Assembly: GCF_036365525.1 (NCBI RefSeq)
Contig: NC_090378.1
Span: 104,972,151-105,036,150 of the forward strand
Length of the DNA: 64,000 nucleotides
Direction of reading: 5' to 3'
Origin: Heterodontus francisci
Lineage: Eukaryota
The notes under the pieces were generated by a model. It made no database searches and had not been told where the DNA came from. It saw nothing but the letters and a program-made list of their open reading frames with translations. The position numbers and the translations under genes are program-made. Positions 12,407-64,000 of this stretch are shown one piece after another (positions within the stretch are counted from its first letter, which is position 1; every line of letters begins with the position of its first letter).

Positions 12407-14559
12407 GGCTGAATTTTGTGGAGGAGGCGGGACTCCCAGCGCTGGGCTGAAACGGCGGTGTGGTGGGGGGGGGGGGGTACCCCGCCTCTGACTTTTGGTG
12501 CCCCCGCGAAGCGATCCTCCAGTGTTTTGAAGGCTAAGTGTCCCCCATCAGGAACCCCGTCACTTTAAAGATGGGGAACCCGCCTCCAAGAGTGATGGCC
12601 ACTGCTGGTATTGCAGAGGCCTTGGACCCAGGCCCAGCACAGGAACCCCGCACATCAGGTAATTGAGGTAGCTTCACCAGGGCAAGTCCGGAAGGCACCA
12701 GGGAAGGGGGTTTGGGGTGGTGGTCATAACGCCAAGGGGGATAGGGTCCATATAGGTGCATTGTTTCCCAGCTGGGGCCCTCCATGGGCCACAGATTGCC
12801 CATGGAGGTGGGACCCCACCCCCCACCCAAACCTGCAGGGAGGGTTTTTTAAAAATTCATTCATGAGATGTGGGTGTCGCTGGTTACGCCAGCATTTATT
12901 GCCCATCCCTAATTGCCCTTGAGAAGGTGGTGGTGAACCGCCTTCTTGAACCGCTGTAGTCCATGTGAGGTAGGTACACCCACAGTGCTGTTAGGAAGGG
13001 AGTTCCAGGATTTTGACCCAGCGAAAGTAAAGGAACGGCGATATGGTTCCAAGTCAGGATGGTGTGTGGATTGGAGGGGAACTTGCAGGTGATGGTGTTT
13101 CCATGCATCTGCTGCTCTTGTCCTTCGAGGTGGTGGAGGTTGCGTGTTTGGAAGGTGCTGTCTAAGGAGTCTTGGTGCGTTGCTGCAGTGCACCTTGTAG
13201 ATGGTACACACTACTGCCACTGTGCGTCAGTGGTGGAGGGAGTGAATGTTTGTGGATGGTGTGCCAATCAAGCGGGCTGCTTTGTTCTGGATGGTGTCGA
13301 GCTTCTTGAATGTTGTTGGAGCTGAATCCATCCAGGCAAGTGGAGAGTATTCCATCACACTCCTGACTTGTGCATTGTAGGTGGTGGACATGCTTTGGGG
13401 AGTCAGGAGGTGAGTTACTCACCTCAGCATTCCTAGCCTCTGACCTGCTCTTGTAGCCATGGTATTTATATGGCTACTCCAGTTCAGTTTCTGGTCAATG
13501 GTAGCCCCTAAGATGTTGATAGTGGGGGATTCAGTGACGGTAATGCCGTTGAATGTCAAGGGGAGATGGTTAGATTCTCTCTTGTTGGAAATGGTCATTG
13601 CCTGGCACCTGTGTGGCACAAACGTTACTTGCCACTTATCAGCCCAAGCCTGGATATTGTCCAGGTCTTGCTGCATTTCTACACGGACTGCTGCAGTATT
13701 TGAGGAGTCGCGAATGGTGCTGAACATTGTGCAATCGTCAGCGAACATCCCTACTTCTGACCTTAAGATTGAAGGAAGGTCATTGATGAAGCAGCTGAAG
13801 ATGGTTGGGCCCAGGACACTGCCCTAAGGAACTCCTGCAGTGATGTCCTGGAGTTCAGATGATTGACCTCCAACAACCACAGCCATCTTCCTTTGCGCTA
13901 GGTATGACTCCAACCAGCAGAGAGTTTTCTCCCTGATTCCCATTGACTTCAGTTTTGCTAGGGCTCCTTGATACCATACTCGGTCATATGCTTGATGTCA
14001 AGGGCAGTCACTCTCACCTCACCCCTTGAATTCAGCTCTTTTGTCCATGTTTGAACCAAGGCTGTAATGAGGTCAGGAGCTGAGTGGCCCTGGCGGAACC
14101 CAAACTGAGCGTCACTGAGCAGGTTATTGCTAAGCAAGTGCTGCTTGATGGCACTGTTGATGACACCTTCCATCACTTTACTGATGATTGAGAGTAGACT
14201 GATGGGGCGGTAATTGGCCAGGTTGGACTTGTCCTGCTTTTTGTGTACAGGACATACCCGGGCAATTTTCCACATTTTGCCTCATTTTACAAGGTGCCCT
14301 CTCTGTGTGGCGGTGGCACCCCCCCGCTGCTGGTTAGATCCCAGCAGCAGCGGGAAGAGGCTCTTAAATGGCCGTTAATAGGCCACTTAAGGGCCTCAGC
14401 TGGCCTCTGGGCAGGAAGGTTATCGTCTGCCTAACCCACCCCTGGTAAGATCGCTTGGCGATGGGGTGGTGACAGACCATCCGTCCCCCACCGCCCATTG
14501 CAATTCTATGGGCCCCCCTGACTCCGACCTTGCCCCAGGGGTGCCCATAAAATCCGGCC
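12407..14559. mobile_element. GC-rich Harbinger-like MITE containing a LINE fragment
   Basis: Termini ggctgaatttt / aaaatccggcc, flanks ctg / cgg. Halves (12407-~12850, ~14278-14559) are homologous to 50048-50804. Confidence 0.75.
12855..14277 (-). mobile_element. 5'-truncated Zenon-like CR1-clade LINE
   Basis: Minus ORFs WKIARVCPVHKKQDKS..YRPISLLS, MFADDCT, SKSWNSLP...LKGN*, very similar to 36340-37780. Confidence 0.92.
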
Positions 14560-16125: not shown

Positions 16126-16153
16126 CAAAGAATCTGCAAAGGGATAGAGTTAG

Positions 16154-18809: not shown

Positions 18810-19914
18810 ATGAGGAGGAATTTCTTCTCTCAGAGAATCATTAATCTTTGGAATTCTCTACCCCAGACAGCAGTAGAGGCTGGGTTATTGAATATATTCA
18901 AGGCTGAAATAGACAGATTCTTGAACTATAGGGGACTCAAGGATTATGGGGAACAAGGAGGAAAGTGGAGTTGAGCCAAGATCAGATCAGCCATGATCTT
19001 ATCAAATGCTGGAGAAAGCTCAAGGGACCATTTGGCCTACTCCTGCTCTTATTTCTCGTGCTCTTATTTAACTTCCCCTAAAATGCAATGACACTTTTCA
19101 CCTCAACTACTCCATGTGGTAGCAAGCTCCACATTGTAGCCACTATCCAAGTAAAGAAGTTACTCCTGAACTCCTTATTGGATTTGTTAGTGACTATCTT
19201 ATATTTATGACCCCTAGTTCTGAAAGCCCCACAAGTGGAAATGTCTTCTCTATGTCTATCCTATCAAACCGGTACAACCCCAGTTTTCTTTTTTCTACAA
19301 AAAAGCAACAGCCTGTTCAACCTCTAACACATTGTTGGTGACAGAAAATCAATCATTCCTTTTCTACGCAATATGTCTTCTCCTAAGCTGCCTACCTCTA
19401 TCGAGAATTTCAGATCAACAGGAGGTAAAAGAAAGATGCTACAGGTGTCCAAATACCACCTTTTATTGTATTTAAGGATTATGGAGCAAGTTAGCATGCT
19501 TTCCCTTTTAACACAAGGCACATAAAAATACCCACACTGGCAGATCTCACAGCAGCCCCCGTAGTTCAGAACACACCTCATCAGTAACTTTTGTAAAGCA
19601 CGTCCTTGTGTAGTGCTTTTGTTTTTATTACTGTTCCAAGCGATTTGCTGAATTAATGTTTACGTGGGCTATGGTACAAGGATTTGCAAATTAGCTATTC
19701 TTATCGGTAGTTCCTCGAAATTTTGATCCAAGCAGAACATTTTTTGGCAAACTAGCTAATTGTATATCAGGATGTGACAACACATTCAACCACTGTTTTT
19801 TTCCAGTGCACTTATTTGTATAAAAGTTGGCTGCTAGCATTTCATGGTGAGTGGACACCAAGCCACAGCTCACAGTTCTGCGTGCTTGACAGAAAATATT
19901 TATTTTTCAATTCT

Positions 19915-20220
19915 TTGTTTACTCCTCATTCCTGTGCTCCAATTCTGGCCACTTGCACATTCCCAGTTTTCCACACTCCACCACTGGCAGCCATGTTTTC
20001 AGCTGCCTAGACCCTAAAGCTCTGGAGCTCCCTCCCTAAACTTCTCCACCCTGCATTAAGTCGTTCCTTAAAACCTACCTCCTTGATCAAGATTTTTGTC
20101 ACCTGACTATTAATTCTTTATGTTGCTTGGTATCACATATTGCTTGATAGTACTTTTGTGAAGCACCTTGGAACATTTTACGATGTTAAAGGCACTATAC
20201 AAATGCAAGTGGCTCTTGTT
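19915..20220 (+). mobile_element. L2 LINE 3' end
   Basis: agctctggagctccctccctaaa...cttaaaacctacctccttga...gttaaaggcactatacaaatgcaag terminus, homologous to 46000-46400 on the minus strand. Confidence 0.75.
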
Positions 20221-20244
20221 GAAGGCAATGAGTCATATTTAGAA

Positions 20245-20642
20245 GGGGAGGCGTTGGCGTACTGGTATTGTCACTGGACTAGTAACCCAGAGACCCAGGT
20301 ATTGCTCTGGGGACATAGGTTCGAATCCCACCACAGCAGAAGGTGGAATTTGAATTTCAATTAATAAAATCTGGAGTTTAAAGCTAGTCTAATGATGGCC
20401 ATGAAACCATTGTGGATTGTTGTAAAAGCCCATCTGGTTCACTAATGTCCTTTAGGGAAGGAAATCTGCTGTCCTTACCTGGTCTGGCCTACATGTGACT
20501 CCAGATCCACAGCAATGTGGTTGACTCTTACATGCCCTCGAAATGGCCTAGCAAGCCACTCAGTTCAAGGGCAATTAGGGATGGGCGATAAATGCTGGCC
20601 TGGCCTGCGACGCCCACATCCCATGAATGAATAAAACAAAAA
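20245..20642 (+). mobile_element. tRNA-headed SINE related to the Zenon-like LINE
   Basis: A box tggcgtactgg (20255-20265), B box ggttcgaatcc (20318-20328), body matching the LINE 5'UTR, tail matching the LINE 3' end, A-rich end; TSD-like atttagaa/atttagga. Confidence 0.9.
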
Positions 20643-21144
20643 ATTTAGGATACAGTTCCACAGCTAAGTGACCTATGCTCTGTGAGTGTCTACACAGTCA
20701 GTCAGTTGGACATCGCATCAGCCCAATCCTGTCCTCATATTACATCCTCACACACACACAATCCAGAATCAATCACTGGATACCCATCAAGAGCAGGAAT
20801 CTTGACTAATTCTTCCCTTCTTCAGTCTAGCAAAGCTTCAGGCTAACTGTTGCAGGCAAGTCTACCATTTCCACAGTTAAGCAAACTCAGCACAGCCTTG
20901 GGATCAAACCTGGGACTTTCTGGCCTCTGTATCTTAGCTGTGAATGGGTCAGTGCTGTTACCTAGTGGTACAAAGGAACAACACCTGAGGCAGCGAAAAG
21001 ATTTAAAAAAAGATTCAAAGTCAGGTTAACAACTGCCAGAAATGCATTTCATTTCTCCTCAAATTCAGTTGTTATAGGATAGCTTCTAAAATTTGAGGCC
21101 TGCAAATCCCCTTGGTTTTTTGCTCCACATTAATGCACTACCTG

Positions 21145-21615
21145 AAAAGTATATTCAGTGGTAACTTTGAAAAAGAACTTCAGTTACATGGAAAGACTAG
21201 AGAAGCTGGGATGATTCTCCTTACAGCAAAGCAGGTTAAGGAGAGACTTATTCGAGGTGTTCAAAATTATGAAGGGTTTTGATACAGTAGATAAGGATAA
21301 ATCACTGGCAGGAGGGTTGGTGGCCAGAAAACAGAGATGTAAGGTAACTGGCAAAAGAATCAGAGGGAGATGAGGAGATTTTTTTTTTAAATTTAGCAAT
21401 TTGCACTGATCTAGAATTCACCGCCTGAAAGGGGGTGGACGCAGATCCAGTAATAACTTTCAAAAGGGAATTGGATAAGCACTTGAAAACAAGAAATTTG
21501 CATGGCTATGCAGAAAGAGCAGGGGAGTGAGTCTAATTGGAGAGCTCTTTCAAAGAGCCCACACAGGCACAATGGGCTGAATGGCCTCCTTCTATGTTTT
21601 ATGATTTTATGATTA
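21145..21615 (+). mobile_element. Old CR1 3' fragment(s)
   Basis: agactagagaagctgggatgattctcctt...gggctgaatggcctccttct...ttttatgattttatg. Confidence 0.8.
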
Positions 21616-22329
21616 AAGCATTTGAAATGAATAACGATGAAGTCCCTGGCACTTCTGCTCATTTTTATTTTAAGTAAGAACATTACTTCTCAGTGTCCCA
21701 ACACTAAAGGCCACCTATCCATTCTCTCAGCCAGGAATGCACACACAAGAAAAATACATCTTACAAGGAGGCCAAGAGAGGGCATTAAAAACAATACTTA
21801 GGAACAATAAAGATCAACAAAAGTCCTTTGCAGTCCTTTAAAAAATATCTGCTACTTAGCATACCATATAAAATAGGAATCTGGACATTCAGAGGACCGT
21901 GAATATAATCTTACTCAAAGTCTGTTTTAAATAAGTTGTTTAAATGAGATAGTATATTGGTTGAACTTACTCTGGTTTATTGCAGTTGTTAGCCTGTTTA
22001 AATAAGAGGGTTAAAAGTTGAATTTCACTTGAATGTGTTAAACAGTGAGGTACCAGAATGTTATGGTACTCATTACAATCTAGACAGTTGGTTATGACCT
22101 GCTACATGAATACTGCACAGGATTTTACAGCTTGCACACATTGTGCAGGTTATCAGATGTAATACACATCCAGGAGGGTGTCAGCTAACTCCTACCTCCA
22201 TAAGGATTTGGCTGCTTGCCAGGGAATATCAGGATCAGGATTGATAAGCTAAGTACCCCTGCACAAAATTCATGTGGAAAAGTGATATCTGCACTGTAGG
22301 AAAAATTAAAAATAAAGCCTAATAGAACC

Positions 22330-23360
22330 AGCAGACACATGGCGGATGAAATTTAACGCAGAGAAGTGTGGTGATACAGTTTGGAATGAAGATTTTGGAG
22401 AAGCAATATAAACTACATGGTACAATTTTAAAGGGGTTGCAGGAACAGTGGGACCTGAGGTTCACATACGCAAATCTTTGGAAGTGGCAGGACAAGTTGA
22501 TAAGGTCATTAAAAAGGCATACAGGATCCTTGGCTTTATAAATAGAGGCATAAACTAAGAAAGCAAGGCAGTTATGCTAAACCTTTATAAAAATAGGTTA
22601 GGCCTCAGCTGGAGTATCATGTCCAATTCTGGCTACCACATGTTTGGAAGGATGTCAAGGTCTTGGTGTGGTGCAGAGAATTACGAGAATGGTAGCAGCG
22701 ATGAGGGACTTCAGTTTTGTGGAGAGACTGGAGAAGTTGGAATTGTACTTACAGCACAGAAAGGGAAAAGGAGCTTTAATAGACGTGTTCAAAATCATGA
22801 TCAGCTTTGAAAGTGTAAATAGGGAAGTATCAGTAAGCAGAGAACATAGGTTTAAGGAAATTGGCAAAAGAACCAGAGGTGACATGAAGAGACTTTTTTT
22901 AAAACACGATGAGTTGTCACCATGGGAAAATAGGAATATAGGAACAGGAGCAGGCCATTTAGCCCCACAAGCCTTCTCTGCCATTCGATGAGTTCATGGC
23001 TGGTCTGCGACCGAACTCCACATACCCATCTTTGCTCCATATCTCTTAATGCCTTTGGTTAACAAAATCTATAAATGTCAGATTTAAAATTAAAACTTGG
23101 ATTCGCATCAGTTGCCATATGTGAAAGAGAGTTCCAAACATCTACCACCCTTTATGTCTATGATCTAAATTGAAAGGGTGGTGGATGCAAATTCAAAAGT
23201 TATTTTCCAAAAAGGAATTGGATAAATACTTGACGGGGAAAAAATGCAAGCCTAAGGGGAAAGAGCAGGGAAGTAGAACGAATTGGATAACTCTTTCAAA
23301 AAGCCAGCACAGGCACAATGGGCCAAATGGCCTCCTTCTGTGTTGTATGATTCCATGATA
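22330..23360 (+). mobile_element. Old CR1 3' region with an antisense CR1 tail (~22930-23160) inserted
   Basis: ORF2 C-terminal motifs on + and tail at 23320-23360; ggaatataggaacaggagcaggccatttagccc marks the minus-strand tail. Confidence 0.75.
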
Positions 23361-23419
23361 AGCTAAAGAGTTCAAAATAAACTACATGAACTAATCAAAT
23401 TGGTCAAAAGCAAAAGTAG

Positions 23420-24010
23420 TGGTTGATAAACCAAATGGCTACTTGCTTGGATCCTAGCAATTTAAATTGGACCGCAAAATGGGAATAATGCGTGTTTCAA
23501 ATTTGGGGGCAAATTATTATACATTTTGATAATGCAAAATATTTTTAGAAAGTTAGATGCATTTTCAGGTTTCTGGCAACCAAAGTTGGATGAAGTTACG
23601 CATATTGAATACTCTTCTGGGAGGTACAGTTCCTTGCCCTTTGGTATTGCTTCAGTTCAGGAAGTATATTACAAAAACATTCATATGATCTATGAGCATA
23701 TTGAAGGTGGCGACACATAGATGGATGACATAACAATGTGGGGTTCATCCAAAGAGGAACATGATGATAAGACTTAGGAATGTACTTCAAGTTCCTTTAA
23801 GAGTCAACCTGAAACTAAATAAAGATAAATGTGTATGTGAAAGAACTAAGCCGATCTCTGTTGGTGATGTCATCCTTAAAGTCTCAGCTGCTGTGCATGT
23901 GCCACGTCCACAGTACAAAAAAGACACGCAGAGACTCCACTGTATTGTCAAGTACTTGGATAATTCATGCCAATTATTTTGGAAAAGACTTCACTTCTTG
24001 AAAAACTATT
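23420..24010 (+). pseudogene. Degenerate Ty3/Gypsy reverse transcriptase fragment
   Basis: LDAFSGFWQ..L, GRY..LPFGIAS..EVY, (*)MDDITMWGSSKEEHD, NLKLNKDKC motifs in order, with stops and frameshifts. Confidence 0.8.
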
Positions 24011-24288
24011 CCTACATAATTGGTTCCAAGATGACTTCTGAGAATTCCCAGCCCCTCTCCAAAATGTTTTGCATCTGCTCAGTGATAACCCTTACCTTGA
24101 CATCTGAGAGGCAAGATATCAATTAGGACTTGCAGCTGCAAGTGCCAACTAATATCCTGGACTAGAGAATTCCTTATTACAGCCATGATGTTTCCATGTT
24201 GAACTTGCTCTCCCTTATCAGCTACTAGTTCCATGGTGTTAAAGCATTGCTTCTGGTTGCCCCCTGCATGTATTCAAGAATTGAATAC

Positions 24289-25217
24289 TGTTATGCTAGA
24301 CCCCCACCTGCCAAGAATGAGGCATATTAATTTCACCATATGGACATTACATTTCAAACTGTTGCTGAAGTGAAGAAAGGACTTGTTAAAAAAACCACCA
24401 GGCCTTTGGCTGGAAAAACATTTTTGCATACCAACATCCAGTGGTTGGAAGGACAAAGGGGCTATTCCCTGCTCCAATTTAACCCACAATGGACTTTGAG
24501 CGCCTGGCATTGTGTGCAAGAAGAGACATTCCAGGGTAGGCTAATACCAGAAAATCCACAAACAAACATGGTCAGACCAGCTAGTCACATGACTAACCAG
24601 CTTGGCAACCTGGGTTTTTCTTAATTGTACAAACAATTTGAACTCAGAGTGTCTGTTTTCTCCTGGACTGAAAAGACCTCTGCTGGCTGGCTCATCACAG
24701 CCTCTCCTGTCTGCTCCCATCTCTTTCTCATGAAACTCCAAATCCACTAAAGACACATGAACCCCAAGAGAGAAAAGTCTCCTACAGCGAATAAGGTTTA
24801 AGAAGAATACTGGACTCCAATGAAAAGCAAGACCTGCCTACAATCAAGGGCTTTACAGCGAGCTCAAAGAACAGTAACCAAAACCATCTTCAGATATTGT
24901 CTCAAACTTTTCCACTTTATTTCTTCTGCCCTTTTCTGTCTCTATCTGCATGTGTGTATCACGTATGCATGTTAGTGTGGGCGCGTTGCATATCTGTAGG
25001 CGTTAACCGAATTAAAGTTTAATAAAGTTCAACCTTTTTTCTTTAAACCTAAGAAAACCTGTTTGGCTAGTTTCTTTGCCTTATAATGGGAAGTTAGTGA
25101 ACAAGGATTCACCAAGGGGGAGTGAAAAACAGTGTGTTTAAAATTAAACCCTGTTACGGTAAGACCAGGTGAAGACTGAGAGGGAACCCTAGACACCTTT
25201 CTCACCTGGTCATAACA
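24289..25217 (+). mobile_element. Solo LTR (929 bp)
   Basis: TGTTATG...CATAACA termini; exact 4-bp TSD atac (24285-24288, 25218-25221); aataaa at 25021. Confidence 0.88.
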
Positions 25218-27534
25218 ATACCATGTTTGTCAATCCAACATTCTCAAAGGAGCTTCCTGGTTCTTCCTTCTATCACAATGGATGGTCACACCACTTGTCT
25301 TCCTGACCACCTCACTCTACCTGTGAGATGACCATCTCCTAAGTGTGTACTTCTGTAATCCCTCAGCTTCCTACATTCAATAGAACATCTCCAGTTGTTC
25401 TTCAAACTCAAGCTGATTTAACAAGTGGTCTTCCTGGACAAGAGGAGGTATCCGGGACTTACCATCTTGTACAAGAACCACACAACACCAGCTTTAGTTG
25501 ACCCTCATTTAACTAAACTGTTCTGTCCTAAAGATTTAACACATTCAAATATAAAATTTTAGGCCACAAAGTTCCTCAGAGTAGTTTCTGTTCCAGTGAG
25601 GTTACAGCGGCAGAGCTTGAACAGATCTGAGGAAATTCCTGGTCTTCACGATTTAACCAATCAAATTTATTTTTAGGTCAAATGTACATTACAGCTGATT
25701 TCTCTTGAGTTGACTAGTTGCTGATATACATCTTTGCTGGATGTCTTCCAACACCTCATTAAAATGGCTCATATTCTTATGCAGGTGATATGACTGCAAG
25801 GGGCATCATTATTAAGTCCATTCCTGTCCTCACCTGACTTTTACACAATGGTACATACAGCAAGGGCTTTTGCTTCTTCATCAACAGCAGCAACCCCAGC
25901 TTAAACCAGATTCCCAATATAGAGCCCCTACTGTCACCCTGGCTAAAATTAATTATCGCAGAATTAAACCTCGGACCTCCCTACTATATGACTTATTGTC
26001 TTAATCTGCTGAGCCATTAAAGGGCCATGAATTGTAGAAATTCTATTTTCCAACCCTAGACAGTGGAAAGCATTAATATAGTTGAGATTGGCAAACCAAC
26101 ATGGTCAATTTGGTTTTAATAGAGTGTAATTTTAACTTTGGGTGATATGGTAAATTGGGCGATAAACAATGCAGCTACCCATTGGACAGCACTCTCAATT
26201 TTCATCTCGATTGTTCCCCCCCCCCAAAAAATGCAGCAGGTATTTCTAGTTTTCTATCTCAGTGAGAGAGCAGCATATCTACGTGAACTCTTCCATTGTT
26301 TGGCAGTTACCTTTTCTCCTTCAGATTCCTGGACTCGACTCCATGGGCTTAGAGTGCAGGCTGGGGATCTGGCCCCTCCATCCCAACAATTGAGGAATGT
26401 GTTTGTGTGTGGGCAGGTCACAGGTGGGGCCCTGCACCCTACCAAAGTTCTATGGCACAGCCCGAAATATCACAGTGAAATCCTAAAAACTACCAGTTCA
26501 GGAACAGGTTTATTTGCACAGCACCATGATTAGCTGCACAACATCCTAGAGAGAGCAAATATAACATGCGGCAAGAAACAAAAGAATTAACCCACATGTT
26601 CCAGGTTGGCACAACTTACTGGATACCCAGCATGCTAGCAATAGGTGGACTTTGGCTGAGATAACTGGCGTAAATCTCCCATCTTTTACAGCCAGGGGTG
26701 CAATGAGGTTTTGCTCATGGAGAAAGTAGCACTTGCACTGTTGTGCCAAAGCAGCTGTTGTGTTCTCTCTGCCTGAACACCCAACTTACGAAAAACTGTG
26801 ATCTTATCATTTAGTTCATTTCTCTTGCCTTATCCTCTTTTTAAGCAAGATTGCAAAAAGGGTCAAGCTTGGTGTTAACCTAGTCACAACATCCTGATTT
26901 ACCTTCTCTTTGTCTACTTTTTTCTGCTTAGGTGATGTCCAGTACTGTGAACATGAGACTTTGATGAGACTTTCAATTAAAAAAGAAAGAGTGACTGGCT
27001 GATTAGCACCAGTCAGTGGTCAATATTGAGAAATGTTGTGGTGTGAAATCGGACTGAAAGAGCCCGCGTTCCTCCCATGCACAACACTGCCAACACTCAC
27101 TATACCCTTGCGAGATTTTTAAATGTGCATGCTTGAGTCTTTCTTTCTACATGCTTGAAACCAAGATCAATGATTATCCCATCTGCCTTGGCTGTTGCTG
27201 TCATGGCCACTTCCCAACGGAAACACTGACACAGTGTGTAATAAAGGGTACTCTTTTCTAAGGCATAATGCCAGTGCTTACCTCCAGAATATGAGAAGGA
27301 TTTTCAATTGGATTAAGTTTACATTTACATTGCTAGAGGCTAAGGGCCTGATTGTAACACACACCCTGGAACTCTGCTTCGTAACAATTGCCTTCCAAAT
27401 GTGACATTTGGAAGGCGATTCAAAGCTTTTAGTGAAAGCTTTCTGCTTAGATATCTATGCGCATTGCATCTGTGAACCTGAGAGGGCCCAATTAAATGAA
27501 AGAATAATAGAAATTATTTATGTATGTTCAATAC

Positions 27535-27667
27535 CTATTGCATGGCCATCAGCACACATGTACTCCACCAAGTTCAGCTCTGGAGGAGGAGGGCAATCTC
27601 CATGCACCTGCTCACACAGTGTAAAGTCTTCTGTCCAAGTGCCATCTTTAGTACAACGGGTGGGGTC
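27535..27667 (-). CDS. PAPPA2: Pappalysin-2 internal coding exon (133 nt)
   Basis: ttctatag|GAC CCC...GCA ATA G|gtattg. Translation [44 protein letters not shown](G) vs recalled human [46 protein letters not shown]. Phase 0 to 1 joins the neighbouring exons in frame. Confidence 0.95.
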
Positions 27668-27851
27668 CTATAGAAATCCAAATATAACAACAAGAGTTAA
27701 AGTCAATAACAGTGGCAACTATAAAAGTGTGAAATGTCACATGCTATCTCCCCATCCCTCTTTATCACATCTATTGAAGTGCTCTGATATCACTTGGCAT
27801 GTGTCTTGGGGTTGCACTACACACATAGCAACAAGGTAAGCTAACACACAG

Positions 27852-28051
27852 GACGGGGGGAGGAGGGCGAGCAGAAATGCATTTGCATAGCGTTGCTTCA
27901 AGCTATGCAGACTGATGTCAAACCCCGCCGGCCAGTCCCTGTGCAATGTCCTTCACTATCATCAATTAGAATGTTGTCTGCCCCATGGCTCTGTCTGCCC
28001 CCGGGGAATTGATGTAAGTTTGTGTAGTACCGCATAAACAAATTTCTCCCC
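27852..28051. mobile_element. Truncated Harbinger-like MITE inside the first minisatellite unit
   Basis: Right end aaatttctcccc; cag on both sides; interrupts aggtaagctaacacacag|...|cagg.tctc. Confidence 0.5.
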
Positions 28052-28065
28052 CAGGATCTCATTAC

Positions 28066-28813
28066 AAGGTAAGTTAACACACAGGCTCTCTCCAGCGGGT
28101 AGGGTAACACACAGGCACTCTCCAGAGGGTAGGTTAACACACAGGCACTCTCCAGCGGGTAGGGCAACACACAGACACTCTCCAGCGGGTAGGTTAACAC
28201 ACAGGCACTCTCCAAGAGGTAGGTTAACACACAGGCACTCTCCATGAGGTAGGTTAACACACAGGCACTCTCCAGAGGGTAGGTTAACACACAGGCACTC
28301 TCTAGAGGGTAGGTTAACACACAGGCACTCTCCAGGAGGTAGGTTAACACACAGGCACTCTCCAGAGGGTAGGTTAACAAACAGGCACTCTCCAGGAGGT
28401 AGGTTAACACACAGGCACTCTCCAGAGGGTAGGTTAACACACAGGCACTCTCCAGGGGGTAGGTTAACACACAGGCACTCTCCAGGGTTAAAGTTAACAC
28501 ACAGGCACTCTTCAGGGGGTAAGTTAACACACAGGCTCTCTCCACAGGATAAACTAACACACAGGCGTTCTCCACGGGGGTAAGCTAACACACATGCTCT
28601 CTTCAGGGGGGTTGGTTAACACACAGGCTCTCTTCAGGGGGTTTGGTTAACACACAGGCTTTCTTCAGGGGGGTTGGTTAACACAGGCACTCTCCGGGGG
28701 GTTGGTTAACACACAGGCTCTCTTCAGGGTGTAGGTTAACACACAGGCTCTCTCCACAGGATAAACTAACACACAGGCGTTCTCCACGGGGGTAAGCTAA
28801 CACACAGGCTCTC
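28066..28813. repeat. 30-bp minisatellite, ~25 units (aggttaacacacaggcactctccagagggt)
   Basis: Directly visible tandem array without unique spacers. Confidence 0.97.
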
Positions 28814-29842
28814 TGCATGACAAAGACATTAGAGAGAAAGCATCTTAGCCCAGAAAATCACGTGGAGCTAAGAAATAGCAAAGGACAAAAAACATTGGTG
28901 GGCCTAGTCTGTTGGCCCCCTATCAGTAGTTCTTGTTGGATTGACTATAAATCAGCAAAATTAGAAGAGCATGTAACAAGGGTAATGCAATAATCATAGT
29001 GGATTTTAATATTACAGACTGGGAAAACCAAGTTGGCAAAAGTAGTTTGGAAGATGAATTCATGGAATGCATCAGGACAGTTTTCCAGAACAAAATGTCA
29101 AGAAACCAACTAGCCAACAGGCTATTTTAGATCTAGGATTGTGTCATGAGACAAGTTAATTAGTAATCTTATAGTAAAGGATCTTCTGGGAACAGCACTC
29201 ATATAATCCTGTGTTGTAGCTTCACCAGGTTGGCACCTCATTTTTAGGTATTCCTAGTGCTGCTCCTGGTATGCTTTCCTGCATTTCTCATTGGACCCGG
29301 GTTGATCCCCTGGCCTGATGGTATTGGTAGAATGAAGGATATGCTGGACCATGAGGCTACAGATTGTGGTCGAATACAACTCTGCAGCTGCTGATGGCCA
29401 AAGCACCTCATGGATGCCCAATTATGAGCTGCTAGATCCGGTTTGAATCTATCTCATTTAGCACAGTGGTTGTGCCACGCAACATGATGGAGGGTATCCT
29501 CAGTGTGAAGACCAGACCTTGTCTCCACAAGTACTGTCACTCCTACCACTACTGTCACAGACAGATGTATGTGTGACAGGTAGATTGTTGAGGATGAGAT
29601 CAAGTTGGTTTTTCCCTCATGATGGTTCTCTCACCACCTGGCATGAGGTCTACAGAAGGGCAGCAAGTGGTAATCAGTAGGTTTCCTCGCCAATGTTTCA
29701 TCTGATGTCATGAGACTTCATGGCGTCCAAAGTCAATGTTGAGGATTCCCAGGGCCACTCCCTCCTGACTGTATACCATTGTGTCGCCACCTCTGGTTGG
29801 TCTGTCCTGCTAGTGGGACAGGACCTACCTAGGGATGGTGAT

Positions 29843-31452
29843 AAGAACATAAATAGGAGCTGAAGTAGGCCCTTAGGCCCCTCAAGTCTGCTCTGCTATT
29901 CAATAAGATCATGACTGATCTGATTATGGCCTCAATTCCACTCTCCTGCCTGCTCCACATAACCATTGACTCCCTTGTGGATCAAAAGTCTGTCTAACTC
30001 AGCCTTGAATATATTCAATGACCCAGCTTCTACTGCTCTGAGGTAGAGAATTCCAAAGATTAACAACCCTCTGAGAGAAGAAATTCCTCCTCATCTCCAT
30101 CTTAAATGGGAGATCCCTTATTTTAAAACTGTGCCGCTGAGTTCTAGATTCCCCCACAGGGGGAAACATCTTCTCAGCATCTACCCTGCCAAGCCCCCTC
30201 AGAATCACACATGCTTCAATAAGATCACCTCTCATTTTTCTAAACTCCATTGAGTATGAGCCCAACCTGCGCAACCTTTCTTCATAAGACAATCCCTTCA
30301 TCCCAGGAGCCAACCTAGTGAGCTGTCTCTGAACTGCCTCCAGTGCAAGTATATCCCTCCTTAAACAAGGAGACCGAAACTGTATGCAGTACTCTAGGTG
30401 TGGGTCTTACCAACACCCTATATAGATGTAGCAAGACTTTCCTACTTTTATACACCATCCCCTTTTCAATAAAGGCCAACATTACATTTGCCTTCCTAAT
30501 TGCTTGCTGTACCTGCATGCTAACTTTTTTTGTTTCATGTACGAGGACAGCCAGATCCCTCTATCCTGCAGCATTCTGTTGTCTCTCACCATTTAAATAA
30601 TATTTTGTTTTTCTATTTTTCCTATCAAAGTGGATAACTTGACATTTTCCCACATTATACTCCATCTGCCAGATTTATGTCAATCACATGACCTACCTAT
30701 ATCCGTTTGCAGACTCGCTGGGCTGCATTTTATGTTGTGACCGTAAAAATGGCAGTGCAGGCTTTACTCGGCAGACGGAGATCCGAAGGTGTGGGAGTGC
30801 CAGCCACTGGCACGAAAATCGCATCAGGATCAACGGCGGGAGCGGGTAAGTAATTAATTCATTACTTTTTATATATTAACATATTTAAATTTTGATGGCC
30901 AGGGGGCTGCCACAAGGCCTCGCCGCCACTGGCAATATGGGGCCGGGCCTTCCCTACGTCAAGGCCCATGGCTGGCCTCTCCCAGAGGCATTTTCTGGGC
31001 CCCCTGCAACAACCTCTGACGTAGAGGGGAGTCTGTAAAATTTGCCCCTCTGTGTCCTCCTCAAAACTTGTTTTCTCACCTACCTTTGTATGGTCAGCAA
31101 ATTTGGCTACAATACTCGTGGTCCCTTCACCCAAGTCATTAACATAGATCATAAATAGTTGAAGCCCCAGCACTGATCCCTGTGGCACTCCATTAGTTAC
31201 AGTTTTCCAACCTGAAAATGACCTATTTATCCTGTCTGTTTCCTGTTAGTTAGCCAATTCTCTATCCATGCTAATATATTACCCCCAACAACATGAGCTC
31301 TTACCTTGCATTGTAATCTTTTATGCGGCTCCTTATCTCATGCCTTTGGAAATCCAAATACACTACAATTACTGGTTCCCCTTTATCCACCCTGTTTGTT
31401 ACATCCTCAAAGAACTCTAATAAATTTGTCAAATATACATCCTCAAAGAACC
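29843..31452 (-). mobile_element. 5'-truncated CR1 LINE with MITE inserted
   Basis: Minus ORFs MPQGSVLGLQLF..KFADHTK, MQVQQAIRKAN, LWNSLP; tail aagaacataaataggagc at 29843. Confidence 0.9.
30721..31047. mobile_element. Short Harbinger-like MITE
   Basis: ggctgcatttt ... aaaatttgccc termini preceded by ctg; internal segment repeated at 32275-32355. Confidence 0.7.
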
Positions 31453-31477
31453 CCTCTGATGGAAGAGTCTGAAACAT

Positions 31478-31580
31478 TTATAACAGTGACTAACTTAAAG
31501 AAGAAGTACTTCATTGGCTGTAAAGCACTTTGAGACGTCCGGTGGTCGTGAAAGGCACTATATAAATGCACCTCTTTCTT
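31478..31580 (+). mobile_element. DeuSINE tail fragment
   Basis: aagtacttcattggctgtaaagcactttgagacgtcc...aaaggcactatataaatgca. Confidence 0.75.
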
Positions 31581-34093
31581 TTTTTAAAAAAATTGGCTGA
31601 AAGTCATACTCACAGAATTATACCTATGTCAAGCTGTTGATTGACTTGTCTGTGGGACAGCTCTCCCTATTTTGGCACAAGTCTCCAGATGTTAGTCAGG
31701 AGAACTCTGCAGGTTAACTGGACTGGGTGTGTCTTTGTCCGGTGCCTCAGTCGATGCCAGTTTTATTCTTATTAAACAATTTCATAGCAGTTTGATACAA
31801 CAGGTTATCTCAGAGGACAGTTAAGAATCTGGAGTGACATGCAGGTCAGAATGGATAAGGACGGCAGATTGCTTTCCCTGAAGGACATTAGTGACCAGAT
31901 GGGTTTTTACAACAATCCAAATGTTTCATAATCACCATTACTGATCCTAGCATTTTATTCCAGATTTACTTAATTCACTGAATTTAAATTCCCCAGGTGC
32001 CGTGGAGGGATTTGAACTCGTGTCTCCGGATCATTAGTCCAGGCTTCTGAATTACTAATCTAGTACCATATCCCTTCCAACCATAGCTAACTAGAGAAAT
32101 TAACAATCATATTACATGAAAGAAAGATGCTTGCAATACTGTCAAAAAGAGCAGTCAGCCTGAGGATTGGGAAGATTTTAGAAATTTCCAAAGGATGACC
32201 CAGAAATTGATAAAGAAAGAGAAAATAGAACATGAGAGTAAATAAGAAAGAAATATAAAGACAAATGTGAAAGTTGAGCGGCGGGGGGGCTGCCGCAAAG
32301 CCTCGCCGCCGCCAGCAATTTGGGGCCGGGCCTTCCCAGGGTCAAGGCCCATGGCAAAAATGTAAAATGGAAGAACTTAGCAAAGCTAAACAGGGGTCTC
32401 TTAGAGGCAGAGACAGGAGAAAATATAATGGGGAGTAAGGAAATGGCAGGCACGTTAAACAAATATTTTGCATCTATTTTACCAGTGGATGACACTAAAA
32501 ATATTCAGGAAATAGTGAACCATCTAATGAATGGGAAGAACTTTAAAATTACTAATAATTGGTCAAGAAAAATATTGCAGAAGTTCATGAGCCTAAAAGC
32601 TGACAAATGCCCAGGACTTGGTTGCCGTACCTCATATGGTTTTAAAAGAGGTGGCTTTAGAGACAGTGAATGCATTGGTTTTGATCTTCCAGAATTCTGT
32701 ACAATCTAGAACAGTCCCTGTGATTTGGAAGGGAGCAAATGGAACCCTGCTGTTCAAGAAAGGAGGGAGAGAGAAAACAGGGAACTATAGTCCAGTTAGC
32801 CTGACATCAGTAGTAGGGAAAATGCTAGAATCTACTATTAGGGACATGGTAACTGGGCACTTAGAAAATCACAATATGATTAGGCAGCGTCAACAGTTTT
32901 ATGGAAGGGAAATCATTTTTGACAAATCTATTAGAGTTTGCTGAGGATGTAAATAGCAGAATAGAGAAAGGAAGCAGTGGATGTGTATTTGGATTTTCAT
33001 GGCATTCGATAAAGTATCACACAAGGGGTTATTGTACAAGGTGAAGGCTCATGGAGTTAGAGAAATATATTAGCATCGACTGAGCATTGGTTAACAGACA
33101 GAAAACCGAGAGTAGAAATAAATGTGTAATTTTTGGGTTGGCAGGTTGTAACTAGTGGGGTGCTGCAAATCAGTGCTGGGGTCTCAGCTACTTACAATCT
33201 ATATCAATAACTTAGATGCAGAGACCGAGTGTAATGTATCCAAATTTGCTGATGATACAAAGCTAGGTGGAAAGGTAAGCTGTGAGGAGGGCACAAAGTG
33301 GCTGCAAAGGGATCGAGACAGATTAGTGAGTGGGCAAGAAAGTGGTAGATGGTGTATAATGTTTTGGAAATATGGAATTATTCGTTTTGGTTGGAAGAAC
33401 AAAAAAGCAAAATATTGTTTGAAAGGTGAGAGACTAGTAAATATTGGTATTCAGAGGGATTTGGGTGTTTTTTTACATAAATTATAGAAAGTTAACATGC
33501 AGGTACAGCAAGCAACAGGAAAGGCAAGTAAAATGTCAGCCTTTATTGCAAGGAAGTTGAAGTATAAGAGTAAGGAAGTTTTGCTGCAATTATATAGGGC
33601 TTTGGTGAGACTACACCTGGACTACTGCGTACAGTTAAAGTCTCCTTGCCTAATGAAGGATTCACTTGCTTCAGAGGGGGTGCAAAAAAGGTTCTCTAGA
33701 TTGTTTCCTGGGATGAGATGGCTGTCCTATGAGGAGAGATTGAGTAGAATGGGTGGATATTCTTTGGAATTTAGAACATTGAGAGGTGACCTCACTGAAA
33801 TGTATAAAATTCTTAGAGGACTTGACATGGTAGATGCCAAGAGGATGTTTCCCCTAGCTGGGGAGACTAGAACTAGGAGTCACAGTCTCAGGATAACAGG
33901 TCGGCCAACTAGAACTGAGATGAGGTGAAATTTCTTCACTCAGAGGGTTATGAATCTATGGAATTTTCTACTCAAGGGCTATGGATGTTCAGTTGTTGAC
34001 TATATTCATGACTGAACAGATTTTTGGACACTAAAACAAAAAACGAGGGAGATGTGGATAGGGCAGGAAAGTGGAATAGAGGTATTTGATCAG

Positions 34094-37000
34094 CCATGGC
34101 ATCAAGACAGCATTTGAACATGTATGGCATCAAGGAGCCCTAGCAAAACTGGAGTCAATGGGAATCAGGGAGAAAACTCTCCAATGGTTGGAGTCATACC
34201 CCGCACAAAGGAAGATGGTTGTGGTTGTTGGAGATCAATCATCTCAATCCCAGGACATCACTGCAGGAGTTCTTCAGGGTAGTGTCCTCGAAACCAACCA
34301 TCTTCAGCTGCTTCATCAATGAACTTCCCTCCATCATAAGGTCAGAACAAGGGGATGTTCGCTGATGATTGCACAATGTTCAGCACCATTCGCAATTCCT
34401 CAGATGATGAAGCAGCCAGAGTACAGATACAGTAAGACCTGGACAACATCCAGGCTTGGGCTGAAAAGTGGCAAGTAACATTCGTGTCACACAAGTGCCA
34501 GGCAATGACCATCTCAAACAAGAGAGAATCTAACCATTTCCCCTTAATGTTCAATGGCATTAAAATTGCTAAATCCCCCACCTTCAACATCCTGGGGCTT
34601 ACCATTGACCAGAAACTGAATTGGACCAGCCATATAAATACTGTGACTACAAGAGCAGGTCAGAGGCTGGTTCACTAATGCCTGTTAGGGAAGGAAATCT
34701 GCTGTCCTTACTTGGTCTGGCCTACATGTGACTCCAGACCCACAGCAATATGGTTGACACTTACATGCCCTCTGAAATGGCCTAGAAAGCCATTCAGTTG
34801 TATCCAACCGCTACGAGGTCAATAAAAAGGAATGAAACTGGATGGACCAACTGGCATTGACCTAGGCACCGGAAACGACAACGGCAAACCCAGCCCTATT
34901 GACCCTGCAAAGTCCTCCTTACCAACATCTGGGGGCTTGTGCCAAAGTTGGGAGAGCTGTCCCACAGACCAGTCAAGCAACAGCCTGACATAGTCATACT
35001 CACTGAATCATACCTTACAGACAATGTCCCAGACACTGCCATCACCATCCCTGGGTATGTCCTGTCCCACCAGCAGGACAGACCCACCAGAGGTGGTGGC
35101 ACAGTGGTATACAGTAGGGAGGGAGTTGCCCTGGGAGTCCTCAACATCGACTCTGAACCCCATGAAGTCTCATGGCATCAGATCAAACATGGACAAGGAA
35201 ACCTCCTGCTGATTACCATCTACCGCCCTCCCTCAGCTGATGAGTCAGTACTCCTCCATGTTGAACAGCACTTGGAGGAAGCACTGAGGGTGGCGAGGGC
35301 ACAAAATGTACTCTGGGTGGGGGACTTCAATGTCCATCACCAAGAGTGGCTCATTAGCACCACTACTGACTGAGCTGACCGAGTCCTAAAGGACATATCT
35401 GCTAGACTGGGTATGCGGTAGGTGGTGAGGGAACCAACAAGAGGGGAAAACATACTTGATCTCGTCCTCACCAATCTGCCTGCCACAGATGCATCTGTCC
35501 ATGACAGTATTGGTAGGAGTGACCACCGCACAGTCCTTGTGGAGACGAAGTCCGGCCTTCACATTGAGGATACCCTCCATCGTGTTGTGTGGCATTACCA
35601 CCGTGCAAAATGGGATAGATTTTGAACAGATCTAGCAATGCAAAACTGGGTATCTATGAGGCACTGTGGACCATCAGCAGCAGCAGAATTGTACTCAACC
35701 ACAATCTGTAACCTCATGGCCCGGCATATCCCCCACTCTACCATTACCATCAAGCCAGGAGACCAACCCTGGTTCAACGAAGAGTGCAGGAGGGCATGCC
35801 AGGAGCAGCACCAGGCATACCTCAAAAAAATGAGGTGTCAACCTGGTGAAGCTACAACACAGGACTATCTGCATGCCAAACTGCATAAGCAGCATGCGAT
35901 AGACAGAGCTAAGCGATCCCATAACCAACGGATCAGATTTAAGCTCTGCAGTCCTTCCACATCCAGCCATGAATGGTGGTGGACAATTAAACAACTAACT
36001 GGAGGGGGTGGCTCCACAAATATCCCCATCCTCAAAGATGGGGGAGCCCAGCACATCAATGCGAAAGATAAGGCTGAAGCATTTACCACAATCTTCAGCC
36101 AGAAGTGCCGACTTGATGATTCATCTCGGCCTCCTCCTGAAGTCCCCAGCATCACAGATGCCAGACTTCAGCCAATTCGATTCACTCCGCGTGATATCAA
36201 GAAACGACTGAAGGCACTGGCTACAGCAAAAGCTATGGGCCCTGACAATATTCCGGCAATAGTACTGAAGACCTGTGCTCCAGAACTTGCCACGCCCCTA
36301 GTCAAGCTGTTCCAGTACCGCTACAACACTGGCATCTACCCTGCAATGTGGAAAATTGCCCAGGTATGTCCTGTACACAAAAAGCAGGACAAGTCCAATC
36401 CGGCCAATCACCGCCCCATCAGTCTACTCTCAATCATCAGTAAAGTGACGGAAGGTGTCATCGACAGTACCATCAAGCGGCACTTGCTTAGCAATAACCT
36501 GCTCAGTGACGCTCAGTTTGGGTTCTGCCAGGGCCACTCAGCTCCTGACCTCATTACAGCCTTGGTTCAAACATGGACAAAAGAGCTGAACTCAAGAGGT
36601 GATATGAGAGTGACTGCCCTTGACATCAAAGCAGCATTTGACCGAGTATGGCATCAAGGAGCTCGAGCAAAATTGAGGTCAATGGGAATCAGGGGGAAAA
36701 CCCTCCACTGGCTGGAGTCATACCTCGCGCAAAGGAAGATGGTTGTGGTTGTTGGAGGTCAATCATCTGAGCTCCAGGACATCACTGCAGGAGTTGCTCA
36801 AGGTCGTGTCCTCGGCCCAGCCATCTTCAGCTGCTTCATCAATGGCCTTCCTTCAGTCATAAGGTCAGAAGTGGGGATGTTCGCTGATGATTGCACAATG
36901 TTCAGCACCATTCGTGACTCCTCAGATACTGAAGCAGTCCGTGTAGAAATGTAGCAAGACCTGGACAATATCCAGGCTTGGGCTGAGAAGTGGCAAGTAA

Positions 37001-38352
37001 CATTTGCGCCACACAAGTGCCAGGCAATGACCATCTCCAACAAGAGAGAATCTAACCATCTCCCCTTGACATTCAACGGCATTACCATCGCTGAATCCCC
37101 CATTATCAACATCCTAGGGACTACCATTGACCAGAAACTGAACTGGAGTAGCCATATAAATACCGTGGCTACAAGAGCAGGTCAGAGGGTAGGAATCCTA
37201 CGGCAAGTAACTCATCTCCTGACTCCCCAAAGCCTGTCCACCTTCTACAAGGCACAAGTCAGGAGTGTGATGGAATACTCTCCACTTGCCTGGATGGGTA
37301 CAGCTCCAACAACACTCAAGAAGCTCGACACCATCCAGGATAAAGCAGCCCGCTTGATTGGCACCCCATCCACAACCTTCAACATTCACTCCCTTAACCA
37401 CCAACGCACAGTGGTAGCAGTGTGTACATCTACAAGATGCACTGCAGCAATGCACCAAGGCTCCTTAAAAAGCAACCTTCCAAACCTGCGACCTCTACCA
37501 ACTAGAAGGACAAGGGCAGCAAATGCATGGGAACACCATCACCTGCAAGTTCCCCTCCAAGTCACACACCATCCTGACTTGGAACTATATTGCCGTTCCT
37601 TCACTGTCGCTGGGTCAAAATCCTGGAACGCTCTTCCTAACAGCACGGTGGATATACCTCCCCGAAATGGACTGCAGCGGTTCAAGAAGGCAGCTCACCA
37701 CCACCTTCTCAAGGGCAATTAGGGATGGGCAATAAATGCTGACATAGCCAGTGACGCCCACATCCCATGAATGAATAAAACAAAAATTCTGCAGTGAGTA
37801 ACTCACCTCCTGACTCCACTGTTCACCATCTACAAGGTACAAGTCAGGAACGTGATGGAATACTCTCCACTTGCCTGCATGGGTGCAACTCCAACAACAC
37901 TCAAGGAGCTCGACATCATCCAAGGCAAAGCAGCCCTCTTGATCAGCACCCCATCCACCACCTTCAACATTCACTCCCTTTACCACCAACGCACAGTGGT
38001 AGCAGTGTGTACCATATATAAGATGCACTGTAGCAACTCACCAAGTCTCCTTCGACACCACCTTCCAAACCTGCAACCTCTACCACCTAGAAGGACAAGG
38101 GCAGCAGATGCATGGGAACCGCCTGCAAGTTCCCCTCCAAGTCACACACCATCCTGACTTGGAACTATATCGCTGTTCCTTCACCGTCTCAGGGTCAAAA
38201 TCCTGGACCTCCTTTCCTAGCAGCACTTTGGGTGTACCTACCCCATATGGACTGCAGCGGTTCAAGAAGGCAGCTCACCACCACCTTCTCATGGGCAATT
38301 AGGAATGAACAAAAATGCTGGCAACGCCCACATCCCATGAACAAATAAAAAA
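34094..38352 (+). mobile_element. Truncated Zenon-like LINE (34094-34670 and 37790-38352) split by a longer copy of the same family
   Basis: AFEHVWHQG...RAGQRL| continues as |attctgcagtgagtaactcacc... through LMGN* and the tail. Confidence 0.88.
34668..37785 (+). mobile_element. Near full-length single-ORF CR1/Zenon-like LINE (APE endonuclease + RT), inactivated
   Basis: One frame (34939, 35422, 35638 and 37027 are in phase) with TNIWGL..LTES, YRPP, GDFN.HH, LDLVL, SDH, GPDNI, RPISLL, FADD, WNALP. In-frame stops at 35371, 35419, 35623, 36952. No ORF1; short 3'UTR. Confidence 0.93.
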
Positions 38353-38393
38353 ATGACCTTATTGAATCACAGAGCAGGCTACTCCTGCTCATA

Positions 38394-38745
38394 TTTAGTT
38401 TAGTTTAGAGATACAGCACTGAAACAGGCCCTTCGGCCCACCGAGTCTGTGCCGACCATCAACCACCCATTTATACTAATCCTACACTAATTCCATGTTC
38501 CTACCACATCCCCACCTGTCCCTATATTTCCCTACCACCTACCTATACTCGGGGCAATTTATAATGGACAATTTACCTATCAACCTGCAAGTCTTTGGCG
38601 TGTGGGAGGAAACCAGAGCACCTGGAGGAAACCCACGCAGACACAGGGAGAACTTGCAAACTCCACACAGGCAGCACCCGGAATTGAACCCAGGTCGCTG
38701 GAGCTGTGAGGCTGCGGTGCTAATCACTGCGCCACTGTGCCGCCC
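38394..38745 (-). mobile_element. V-SINE (HE1-like)
   Basis: Minus strand gggcggcacagtggcgcagtg...gggttcaattc head, V-domain tgtgtggagtttgcaagttctccctgtgtctgcgtgggtttcc, CR1-type tail with (ctaaa)n. Confidence 0.92.
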
Positions 38746-63580: not shown

Positions 63581-64000
63581 TGACCATCTCCAACAAAAGA
63601 GAATCGAACCATCTCCCCTTGACATTCAATGGCATTACCATCACTGAATCCCCCACTATCAACATCCTAGGGGCTACCATTGACCAGAAACTGAACTGGA
63701 GTAGCCATATAAATACCGTGGCTACAAGAGCAGGTCAGAGGCTAGGAATCCTGCGGCGCGTAACTCATCTCCTGACTCCCCAAAGCCTGTCCACCATCTA
63801 CAAGACACAAGTCAGGAGTGTGATGGAATACTCTCCACTTGCCTGGATGGGTGCAGCTCCAACAACACTCAAGAGGCTTGACACCATCCAGGACAAAGCA
63901 GCCCGCTTAATTGGCACCCCATCCATAAACATTCACTCCCTCCACCACCGAGGCACAGTGGCAGCAGTGTGTACCATCTACAAGATGCACTGCAGCAATG
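63581..64000 (+). mobile_element. Zenon-like LINE fragment, running off the window
   Basis: Near-identical to 37030-37450 (tgaccatctccaaca...gcactgcagcaatg). Confidence 0.92.

Follow-up and report, generated by a model that had tools for sequence, protein, structure and literature searches.

A Zenon LINE of sharks and rays with a tRNA-like head, few T-runs and no normal start codon: a likely RNA polymerase III transcript

We analysed a 64,000-nt stretch of the Heterodontus francisci genome, which is 6 Gb in size (contig NC_090378.1; hereafter the window). It holds copies of one LINE family, Zenon, and a related SINE. Their features are, in window coordinates:

12855..14277, minus strand: 3' half of another copy of the Zenon family
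20245..20642, plus strand: SINE, judged by its sequence an internal-deletion derivative of the LINE (A box 20255-20265, B box 20318-20328)
29200..29842, minus strand: older internal fragments of the family
31626..32072, minus strand: old 5' fragment of the family, with a decayed tRNA-like head, the 5'UTR and the first endonuclease codons
32008..32017, minus strand: B box of the old head
34094..34668, plus strand: RT-region fragment of another copy, adjoining the long copy
34668..37785, plus strand: dead, 5'-truncated copy of the young subfamily with an A tail, starting at about consensus position 192 and 95.7% identical to the consensus
34668..34800, plus strand: conserved 5'UTR core
34778..34792, plus strand: predicted anticodon-like hairpin with a 4-5 bp stem and a 7-nt loop, which bears one private change in this copy
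34810..34812, plus strand: candidate codon mimic, an in-frame codon complementary to the hairpin loop, just upstream of the inferred translation start
34810..37722, plus strand: single frame for an APE endonuclease and reverse transcriptase
35620..35623, plus strand: sole sense TTTT of the long copy, due to CpG decay that also makes a stop
37722..37785, plus strand: 3' UTR stem-loop and short A tail, common to the long copy and the SINE
37785..38353, plus strand: 3' fragments from other copies of the family
63581..64000, plus strand: fragment of the family that runs off the end of the window

The frame of the long copy is broken by six premature stops (34858, 34900, 35371, 35419, 35623 and 36952), and the first in-frame ATG of the consensus corresponds to 35638 in this copy. 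An earlier, sequence-only reading had listed 31602..37785 as a candidate LINE with a tRNA-like head fused to an endonuclease and reverse transcriptase (EN-RT) frame. One correction is needed: the head fragment and the long copy inserted separately, in opposite orientations, and a CR1 lies between the two. The parts were placed correctly: the B box (32017-32008), the decayed A-box region, the 5'UTR and the endonuclease start are all found on the minus strand between 32072 and 31626, the long copy starts at 34668 inside the same 5'UTR, and the SINE at 20245 carries the full head with both boxes. The counts of TTTT (T4) runs given in that reading were also reproduced. The long copy has a single sense run, at 35620, against 15 on the antisense strand, and none occurs in the other five family pieces listed there, in the head fragment or in the SINE; the five CR1 pieces counted in the window carry T4 runs on both strands. 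The run at 35620 does come from a CGA-to-TGA change, and the same consensus site is hit in three other copies. The closest named protein matches are fragments within Heterodontus and Heptranchias predictions (76-85%).

Judged by sequence, the element is the elasmobranch Zenon LINE, of the CR1 group, described by Stuart et al. (2026, PMC13343379). Over the first 400 nt it shares exact words with the published consensuses and is near-identical to them by eye. The elasmobranch set comprises Zenon-1 of CarCar, HypSab, RhiTyp and ScyCan and Zenon-1/2/3 of SquAca, elements which, like the one studied here, are about 3.3 kb long, lack ORF1, encode APE-RT and end in an A tail. All seven of these consensuses (four sharks, one ray) begin with the head, and inspection by eye found no TTTT in their first 400 nt. 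The three hagfish and coelacanth Zenons have other starts and, again by eye, T4 runs within the first 400 nt. Since all Zenons in that paper lack ORF1, with the head or without it, the loss of ORF1 is not diagnostic. The main text of the paper contains no occurrence of "tRNA", "Pol III", "polymerase III" or "start codon", and the head, the avoidance of T-runs and the missing ATG of the family are not described in it. The family is therefore known, while these three properties appear to be undescribed in the literature searched. That literature, covered mostly by listings and with Repbase and Dfam outside the search, likewise yielded no description of a coding LINE that RNA polymerase III (Pol III) transcribes.

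The linkage of head and open reading frame, which the sequence-only reading had based on one copy, is family-wide in the genome and recurs in the published shark and ray consensuses, so that the chance SINE-LINE chimera it had feared did not materialise. The head runs unbroken into the ORF (from consensus position 20 or less) in 25 of the 39 further copies selected through the endonuclease region, in six of 20 picked by the RT region (nine of those 20 lack the endonuclease start), in 13 of 40 picked with old queries, and in 13 of the first 20 exact-pattern matches, all on one contig. Exact patterns, whose counts are lower bounds, detected at least 6,625 LINE-type leader junctions and at least 1,825 SINE-type junctions in the genome. 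Moreover, nine of 21 full-length copies sit cleanly inside another repeat, whose halves are separated by -3 to +25 nt, which means that insertion takes in the head, the ORF and the tail at once; head, leader, ORF and A tail thus move together. Target-site duplications outside the head, proposed in the same reading as a check, were absent from the 15 full-length copies searched, where the matches seen were either short and non-flanking or due to a tandem repeat. The family is also present in assembled sequencing-run contigs of several organisms, an observation of presence and not of expression or of starts. A search with the old flank fragment returned matches to the young family only.

The window SINE consists of consensus positions 1-322 fused to the final ~70 bases; the hairpin is retained and the candidate codon lost. 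A sample of 34 loci bearing the LINE-type pattern gave three further deletion junctions; in L268, L271, L284 and L293 the sequence breaks off at 336-425 and picks up again at 3103-3181. Several deletion junctions favour descent from LINE to SINE, and by their sequences the local SINEs are shown to be internal-deletion derivatives of the LINE. They resemble the tRNA-headed bipartite SINEs of Kojima (2018, PMC5786205) in that the 400-nt SINE is made of the head, the LINE 5'UTR and the LINE 3' end. In the SINEs of that paper, however, the head was added to a non-autonomous bipartite LINE, and the donors listed there are only RTE and Vingi, whereas here the coding LINE itself bears the head and there are several deletion junctions. 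The lepidopteran Zenon with its SIDE Persaeus (PMC6740152) offers another parallel, a single-ORF Zenon that yields short, internally deleted, A-tailed copies; unlike the SINE studied here, Persaeus is described in that source without tRNA homology or a Pol III promoter. SacSINE1 and the Deu-domain SINEs of sharks (PMC5499810) are also tRNA-headed with a conserved body, but SacSINE1 differs from the present SINE by its L2-type tail and its Deu domain. We considered the leader as a possible Deu domain and found no resemblance by eye to the hagfish/AmnSINE1 Deu alignment of PMC7245038.

The head is a tRNA-Thr-like sequence with a 20-nt hairpin insert and contains internal A and B boxes. Among the three gene types sampled (Thr, Lys and Cys), it aligns best to the genome's tRNA-Thr genes, with z up to 8.0 against no more than 4.4 for Lys and Cys. 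ARAGORN made no tRNA call over the whole window and Rfam gave no match over 19500-38500; neither program calls the head a tRNA, and its T-arm scores weakly on the tmRNA model. Each box differs between the old and the young consensus at two of 11 sites, roughly as often as elsewhere in the head. The 5' ends of the copies are sharp, clustering at consensus positions 1-6, some 10 nt upstream of the A box; a short fixed distance from start to A box is expected of a Pol III type 2 unit. The base preceding the 5' end is a G in seven of 39 copies, against a background of 24%, so that there is no sign of an extra G, although the measure is weak. At the 3' end, the element has A tails of ~10 nt in the copies listed, and an AATAAA lies ~45 nt upstream of the tail. 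The T-runs that precede the A tail were considered as an encoded terminator. They vary from 1 to 10 in length, trade length with the A tail at a constant total and look post-insertional, for which reason we rejected them; these loci commonly carry T4-A4 tracts (61, against five in the reverse order). The element thus lacks the encoded 3' terminator of a type 2 unit, as many SINEs likewise do. No tRNA gene was found in 31 metagenome LINE loci scanned, and a scan of 65 metagenome LINEs for the box patterns gave one lone B-box-like match and none to the leader, in loci whose 5' ends may be missing.

The scarcity of T4, from which the sequence-only reading had argued for Pol III, stood only in part. 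The young consensus was taken as the majority of 27 loci together with the long copy of the window, all of them 94-97% alike to it. It measures 3.3 kb, with 20% T, no sense T4 and 15 A4 runs; 20 of the 28 copies behind it also lack T4. The old-subfamily consensus, built from 32 loci, has no sense T4 either, but it was piled on the young one and is 93% alike, so the two are not independent. Under codon-aware nulls, an absence of T4 falls within chance (P0 = 0.086 and 0.33), that is, the count lies within the codon-shuffled controls, and the significance of the pattern rests on the TTT and T-cluster statistics. All four TTT in the ORF are Phe codons. Codon junctions that form TTT number 0 against 9.97 expected in the young consensus and 0 against 9.85 in the old (0 of 5000 shuffles), or 0 against 6.6 under a CpG-aware null (P = 0.001), and windows with four T in 5 nt number one against 10.7 expected. 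Pyrimidine tracts are not depleted, only T clusters. When the junction dinucleotides are fixed in the null, the TTT signal is abolished (P0 = 0.17), and plain T|T junctions are themselves low (six against 11.1 expected, P = 0.04). The depletion is therefore largely an avoidance of T next to T, which leaves room for other causes, and the pressure may be on UU and not on terminators. Selection against terminators and near-terminators fits these sequences; so does an avoidance of UU for another reason.

The controls behaved differently from the Zenon consensus. A CR1 consensus of the same genome, for which 20 loci were treated likewise, is not depleted, with 12 T4 against 11.2 expected and 26 TTT-forming junctions against 27.6-29.9. 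For a more distant comparison, we used the 65 of 80 metagenome LINE loci that have an open frame of at least 400 codons with a match: all 65 ORFs contain at least one T4, and their junction ratio has a median of 0.99 and a lowest value of 0.61. One metagenome LINE locus among the controls, L215, headless or 5'-truncated, is also poor in T4 (one against 14). Changes shared by at least four loci (1 of 11 making a new TTT, against an opportunity of 9%) are too few to bear on selection against TTT.

The consensus frame spans 975 codons from stop to stop and matches Pfam PF03372, PF14529 and PF00078. Its endonuclease begins at codon 46, while the first in-frame ATG is codon 285. The ORF is open and protein-conserving across the subfamilies, and the leader core is as well conserved between them as the ORF (4.7% against 5.6% difference between the old and young consensuses). 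Upstream of the ORF lie ~310 nt of leader with no other long frame and with many short upstream ATGs; an out-of-frame ATG at consensus position 357 was rejected as a conserved start since it is ATA in older copies. Just before the ORF, a hairpin with a 7-nt anticodon-like loop is predicted with pair probabilities of 0.93-0.99. A 4-nt complement of the loop lies 12 nt past the hairpin stem, and its first three bases form an in-frame codon, which, in 40 of the 67 copies that could be measured, is found 114 nt upstream of a fixed landmark in the endonuclease. This combination, defined after the fact, occurs in 0.1% of leader shuffles. By eye, the frame is kept by four of the seven published elasmobranch consensuses and not by the three Squalus ones. 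In contigs of four other organisms, the loop and stem have no common variant save one compatible change, the linker varies and the candidate codon varies at its CpG only; the loop-codon pair shows no compensatory change there, so that this is constancy and not covariation. Indels between the codon mimic and the endonuclease gave no clear sign of frame preservation (multiples of three in 7 of 27 and 6 of 10 non-modal lengths), the leader folds no better than its shuffles (z of -0.5 and -0.8), and it matches none of the IRESs in Rfam.

The anticodon-like hairpin before the ORF, with its complementary codon in frame, hints, as a structural model, at IRES-like initiation. The candidate likeness is to the PKI of the dicistrovirus type 6 (IGR) IRES, which has an anticodon-like loop, a complementary codon downstream and a non-AUG frame. 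PKI mimicry is described for type 6 IRESs (PMC12221177), and such IRESs in non-LTR elements are raised in PMC3894237 as a possibility only. Unlike in those IRESs, the complement here is of 4 nt only, SLIV, SLV, PKII and PKIII were not identified, and the helix list of the leader gave no clear assignment for PKII/PKIII, L1.1, SLIV or SLV. That the hairpin and codon may act like a PKI domain is thus a tentative proposal, which we regard as possible and doubtful.

The tRNA-derived head, the avoidance of T-runs and the lack of a normal start codon together make it likely, as far as sequence can tell, that the family is transcribed by Pol III. On balance we favour a model in which the element is transcribed by Pol III from end to end, its RNA would end at a flanking T-run and the EN-RT would insert it without duplication. 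In vertebrates, a run of at least four T terminates Pol III, whose RNA is uncapped. TFIIIC and TFIIIB would use the boxes of the head, with a start ~10 nt upstream of the A box. Internal terminators would have been purged from source copies because, we propose, a source copy with one could not make full-length RNA, and transcription would, as in SINEs, continue beyond the encoded A tail until a T-run in the flank is reached. For the uncapped RNA, we predict translation from a non-AUG start that the structured leader defines. The EN-RT protein may then bind the 3' stem-loop and insert the element by target-primed reverse transcription without duplication. SINEs arise from the LINE by internal deletion. 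Retrotransposition of Pol III templates without ORF1p fits this model by analogy with the L1/Alu system, in which Pol III transcripts retrotranspose without ORF1p (PMC2666806), although it is not diagnostic.

The chief rival, to which we give a minority share, is a capped RNA made by Pol II from the head or leader region. Here the head would be a captured SINE or a tRNA-like 5' end serving as an ordinary internal LINE promoter, the avoidance of T would have another cause such as a U-rich or UU effect, and a near-cognate start would be reached by scanning or reinitiation. Such a transcript agrees with the general view of LINEs as Pol II units (PMC5786205), with boxes no better conserved than the rest of the head, with an AATAAA near the A tail, with the short upstream ATGs and with a depletion that is largely a T-next-to-T effect. 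It sits less well with the many copies whose 5' ends lie ~10 nt upstream of an intact A box without an extra 5' G, and with a depletion that spares polypyrimidine tracts and strikes T clusters alone; T-poor distant ORFs still have T4, and upstream ATGs in such number would hinder scanning.

A mixed life cycle, in which Pol III makes the inserted template RNA while the protein is translated from capped read-through RNAs that Pol II makes separately, strikes us as quite unlikely. It would explain the head, the sharp 5' ends and the purge of T-runs without cap-independent translation, the leader has no recognised IRES, and the thousands of copies (at least 6,625 exact leader matches) could supply read-through RNA. 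However, the ORF stays open and protein-conserving, which is more readily achieved when template and protein come from one RNA, and a read-through RNA made by Pol II would be just as devoid of an in-frame ATG. We hold it very improbable that the locus is a chance SINE-LINE chimera or that composition alone removed the T-runs. The absence of T4 is not significant alone, which suits the latter, but the depletion of TTT-forming junctions speaks against it, and chance is refuted for the linkage by dozens of independent copies and the consensuses of five other species.

Returning to Pol III transcription from end to end, its fullest form would make this autonomous vertebrate retrotransposon a Pol III gene throughout the shark-ray radiation, with an uncapped 3.3-kb RNA, purged terminators, start-codon-less translation through a tRNA-mimicking, dicistrovirus-like leader, and SINEs shed by internal deletion. 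As a whole, this picture drawn from sequence is an unlikely one. If it were true, a natural 3.3-kb Pol III mRNA would break the division by which LINEs are taken as Pol II units and Pol III RNAs as non-coding. It would also allow a direct test of the translation of uncapped RNA and of why ORF1 is dispensable, and it would reveal a way for SINEs to be born with a promoter that the LINE itself provides. A compact element with such properties would be of interest for RNA-based gene insertion. Even if its RNA is made by Pol II, the family would be a LINE with a tRNA head and no ATG, retained in both sharks and rays and undescribed in the literature searched.

The core of the leader that separates the tRNA-like head from the ORF of the LINE family Zenon (consensus 173-290; L067:997-1120) is covered far more deeply than either in contigs of other organisms, where many loose ends also mark its borders. 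Taken together, the deep coverage and the loose ends suggest that this core is shared with other repeats of higher abundance. Directly upstream of the endonuclease, a 13-nt deletion flanked by short direct repeats breaks the Zenon frame; it recurs at window 31755 and in L110, L116, L120 and L124, four loci selected with a query that itself carries the deletion. Its recurrence reflects either a hotspot or the mark of a non-autonomous subfamily.

Other repeats lie in the window:

Window 16152-16826 and 17352-18036: inverted repeat pair of 685 bp, 91% identity
Window 27898-28820: 30-nt units repeated in tandem, which give rise to open frames of 217 and 228 codons on both strands
Window 38380-38600: separate SINE with a CR1-type microsatellite tail, adjoining Zenon fragments

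The second arm of the inverted repeat overlaps a 159-codon frame (window 17363-17842). The SINE, which we take to be HE1-like, also splits several Zenon copies (L044, L096, L115).

Sense-strand T-runs are scarce in L215:345-2111, a distant metagenome LINE ORF: it has one T4 where 14 would be expected, and its TTT codon junctions reach half of the expected number. This ORF is 5'-truncated and lacks the end at which any Pol III head would lie.

At the 3' ends of Zenon copies (L031-L149; window 37776-37785) the A tails have a uniform length of ~10 nt and are converted to T-runs starting at their left side. Across the sampled loci, T4-then-A4 tracts outnumber A4-then-T4 tracts by 61 to 5, an excess that is a directional mutation bias. 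At the opposite end, the bases immediately 5' of full-length insertions are A/T-rich, and this flanking composition likely reflects a target preference of the Zenon endonuclease.
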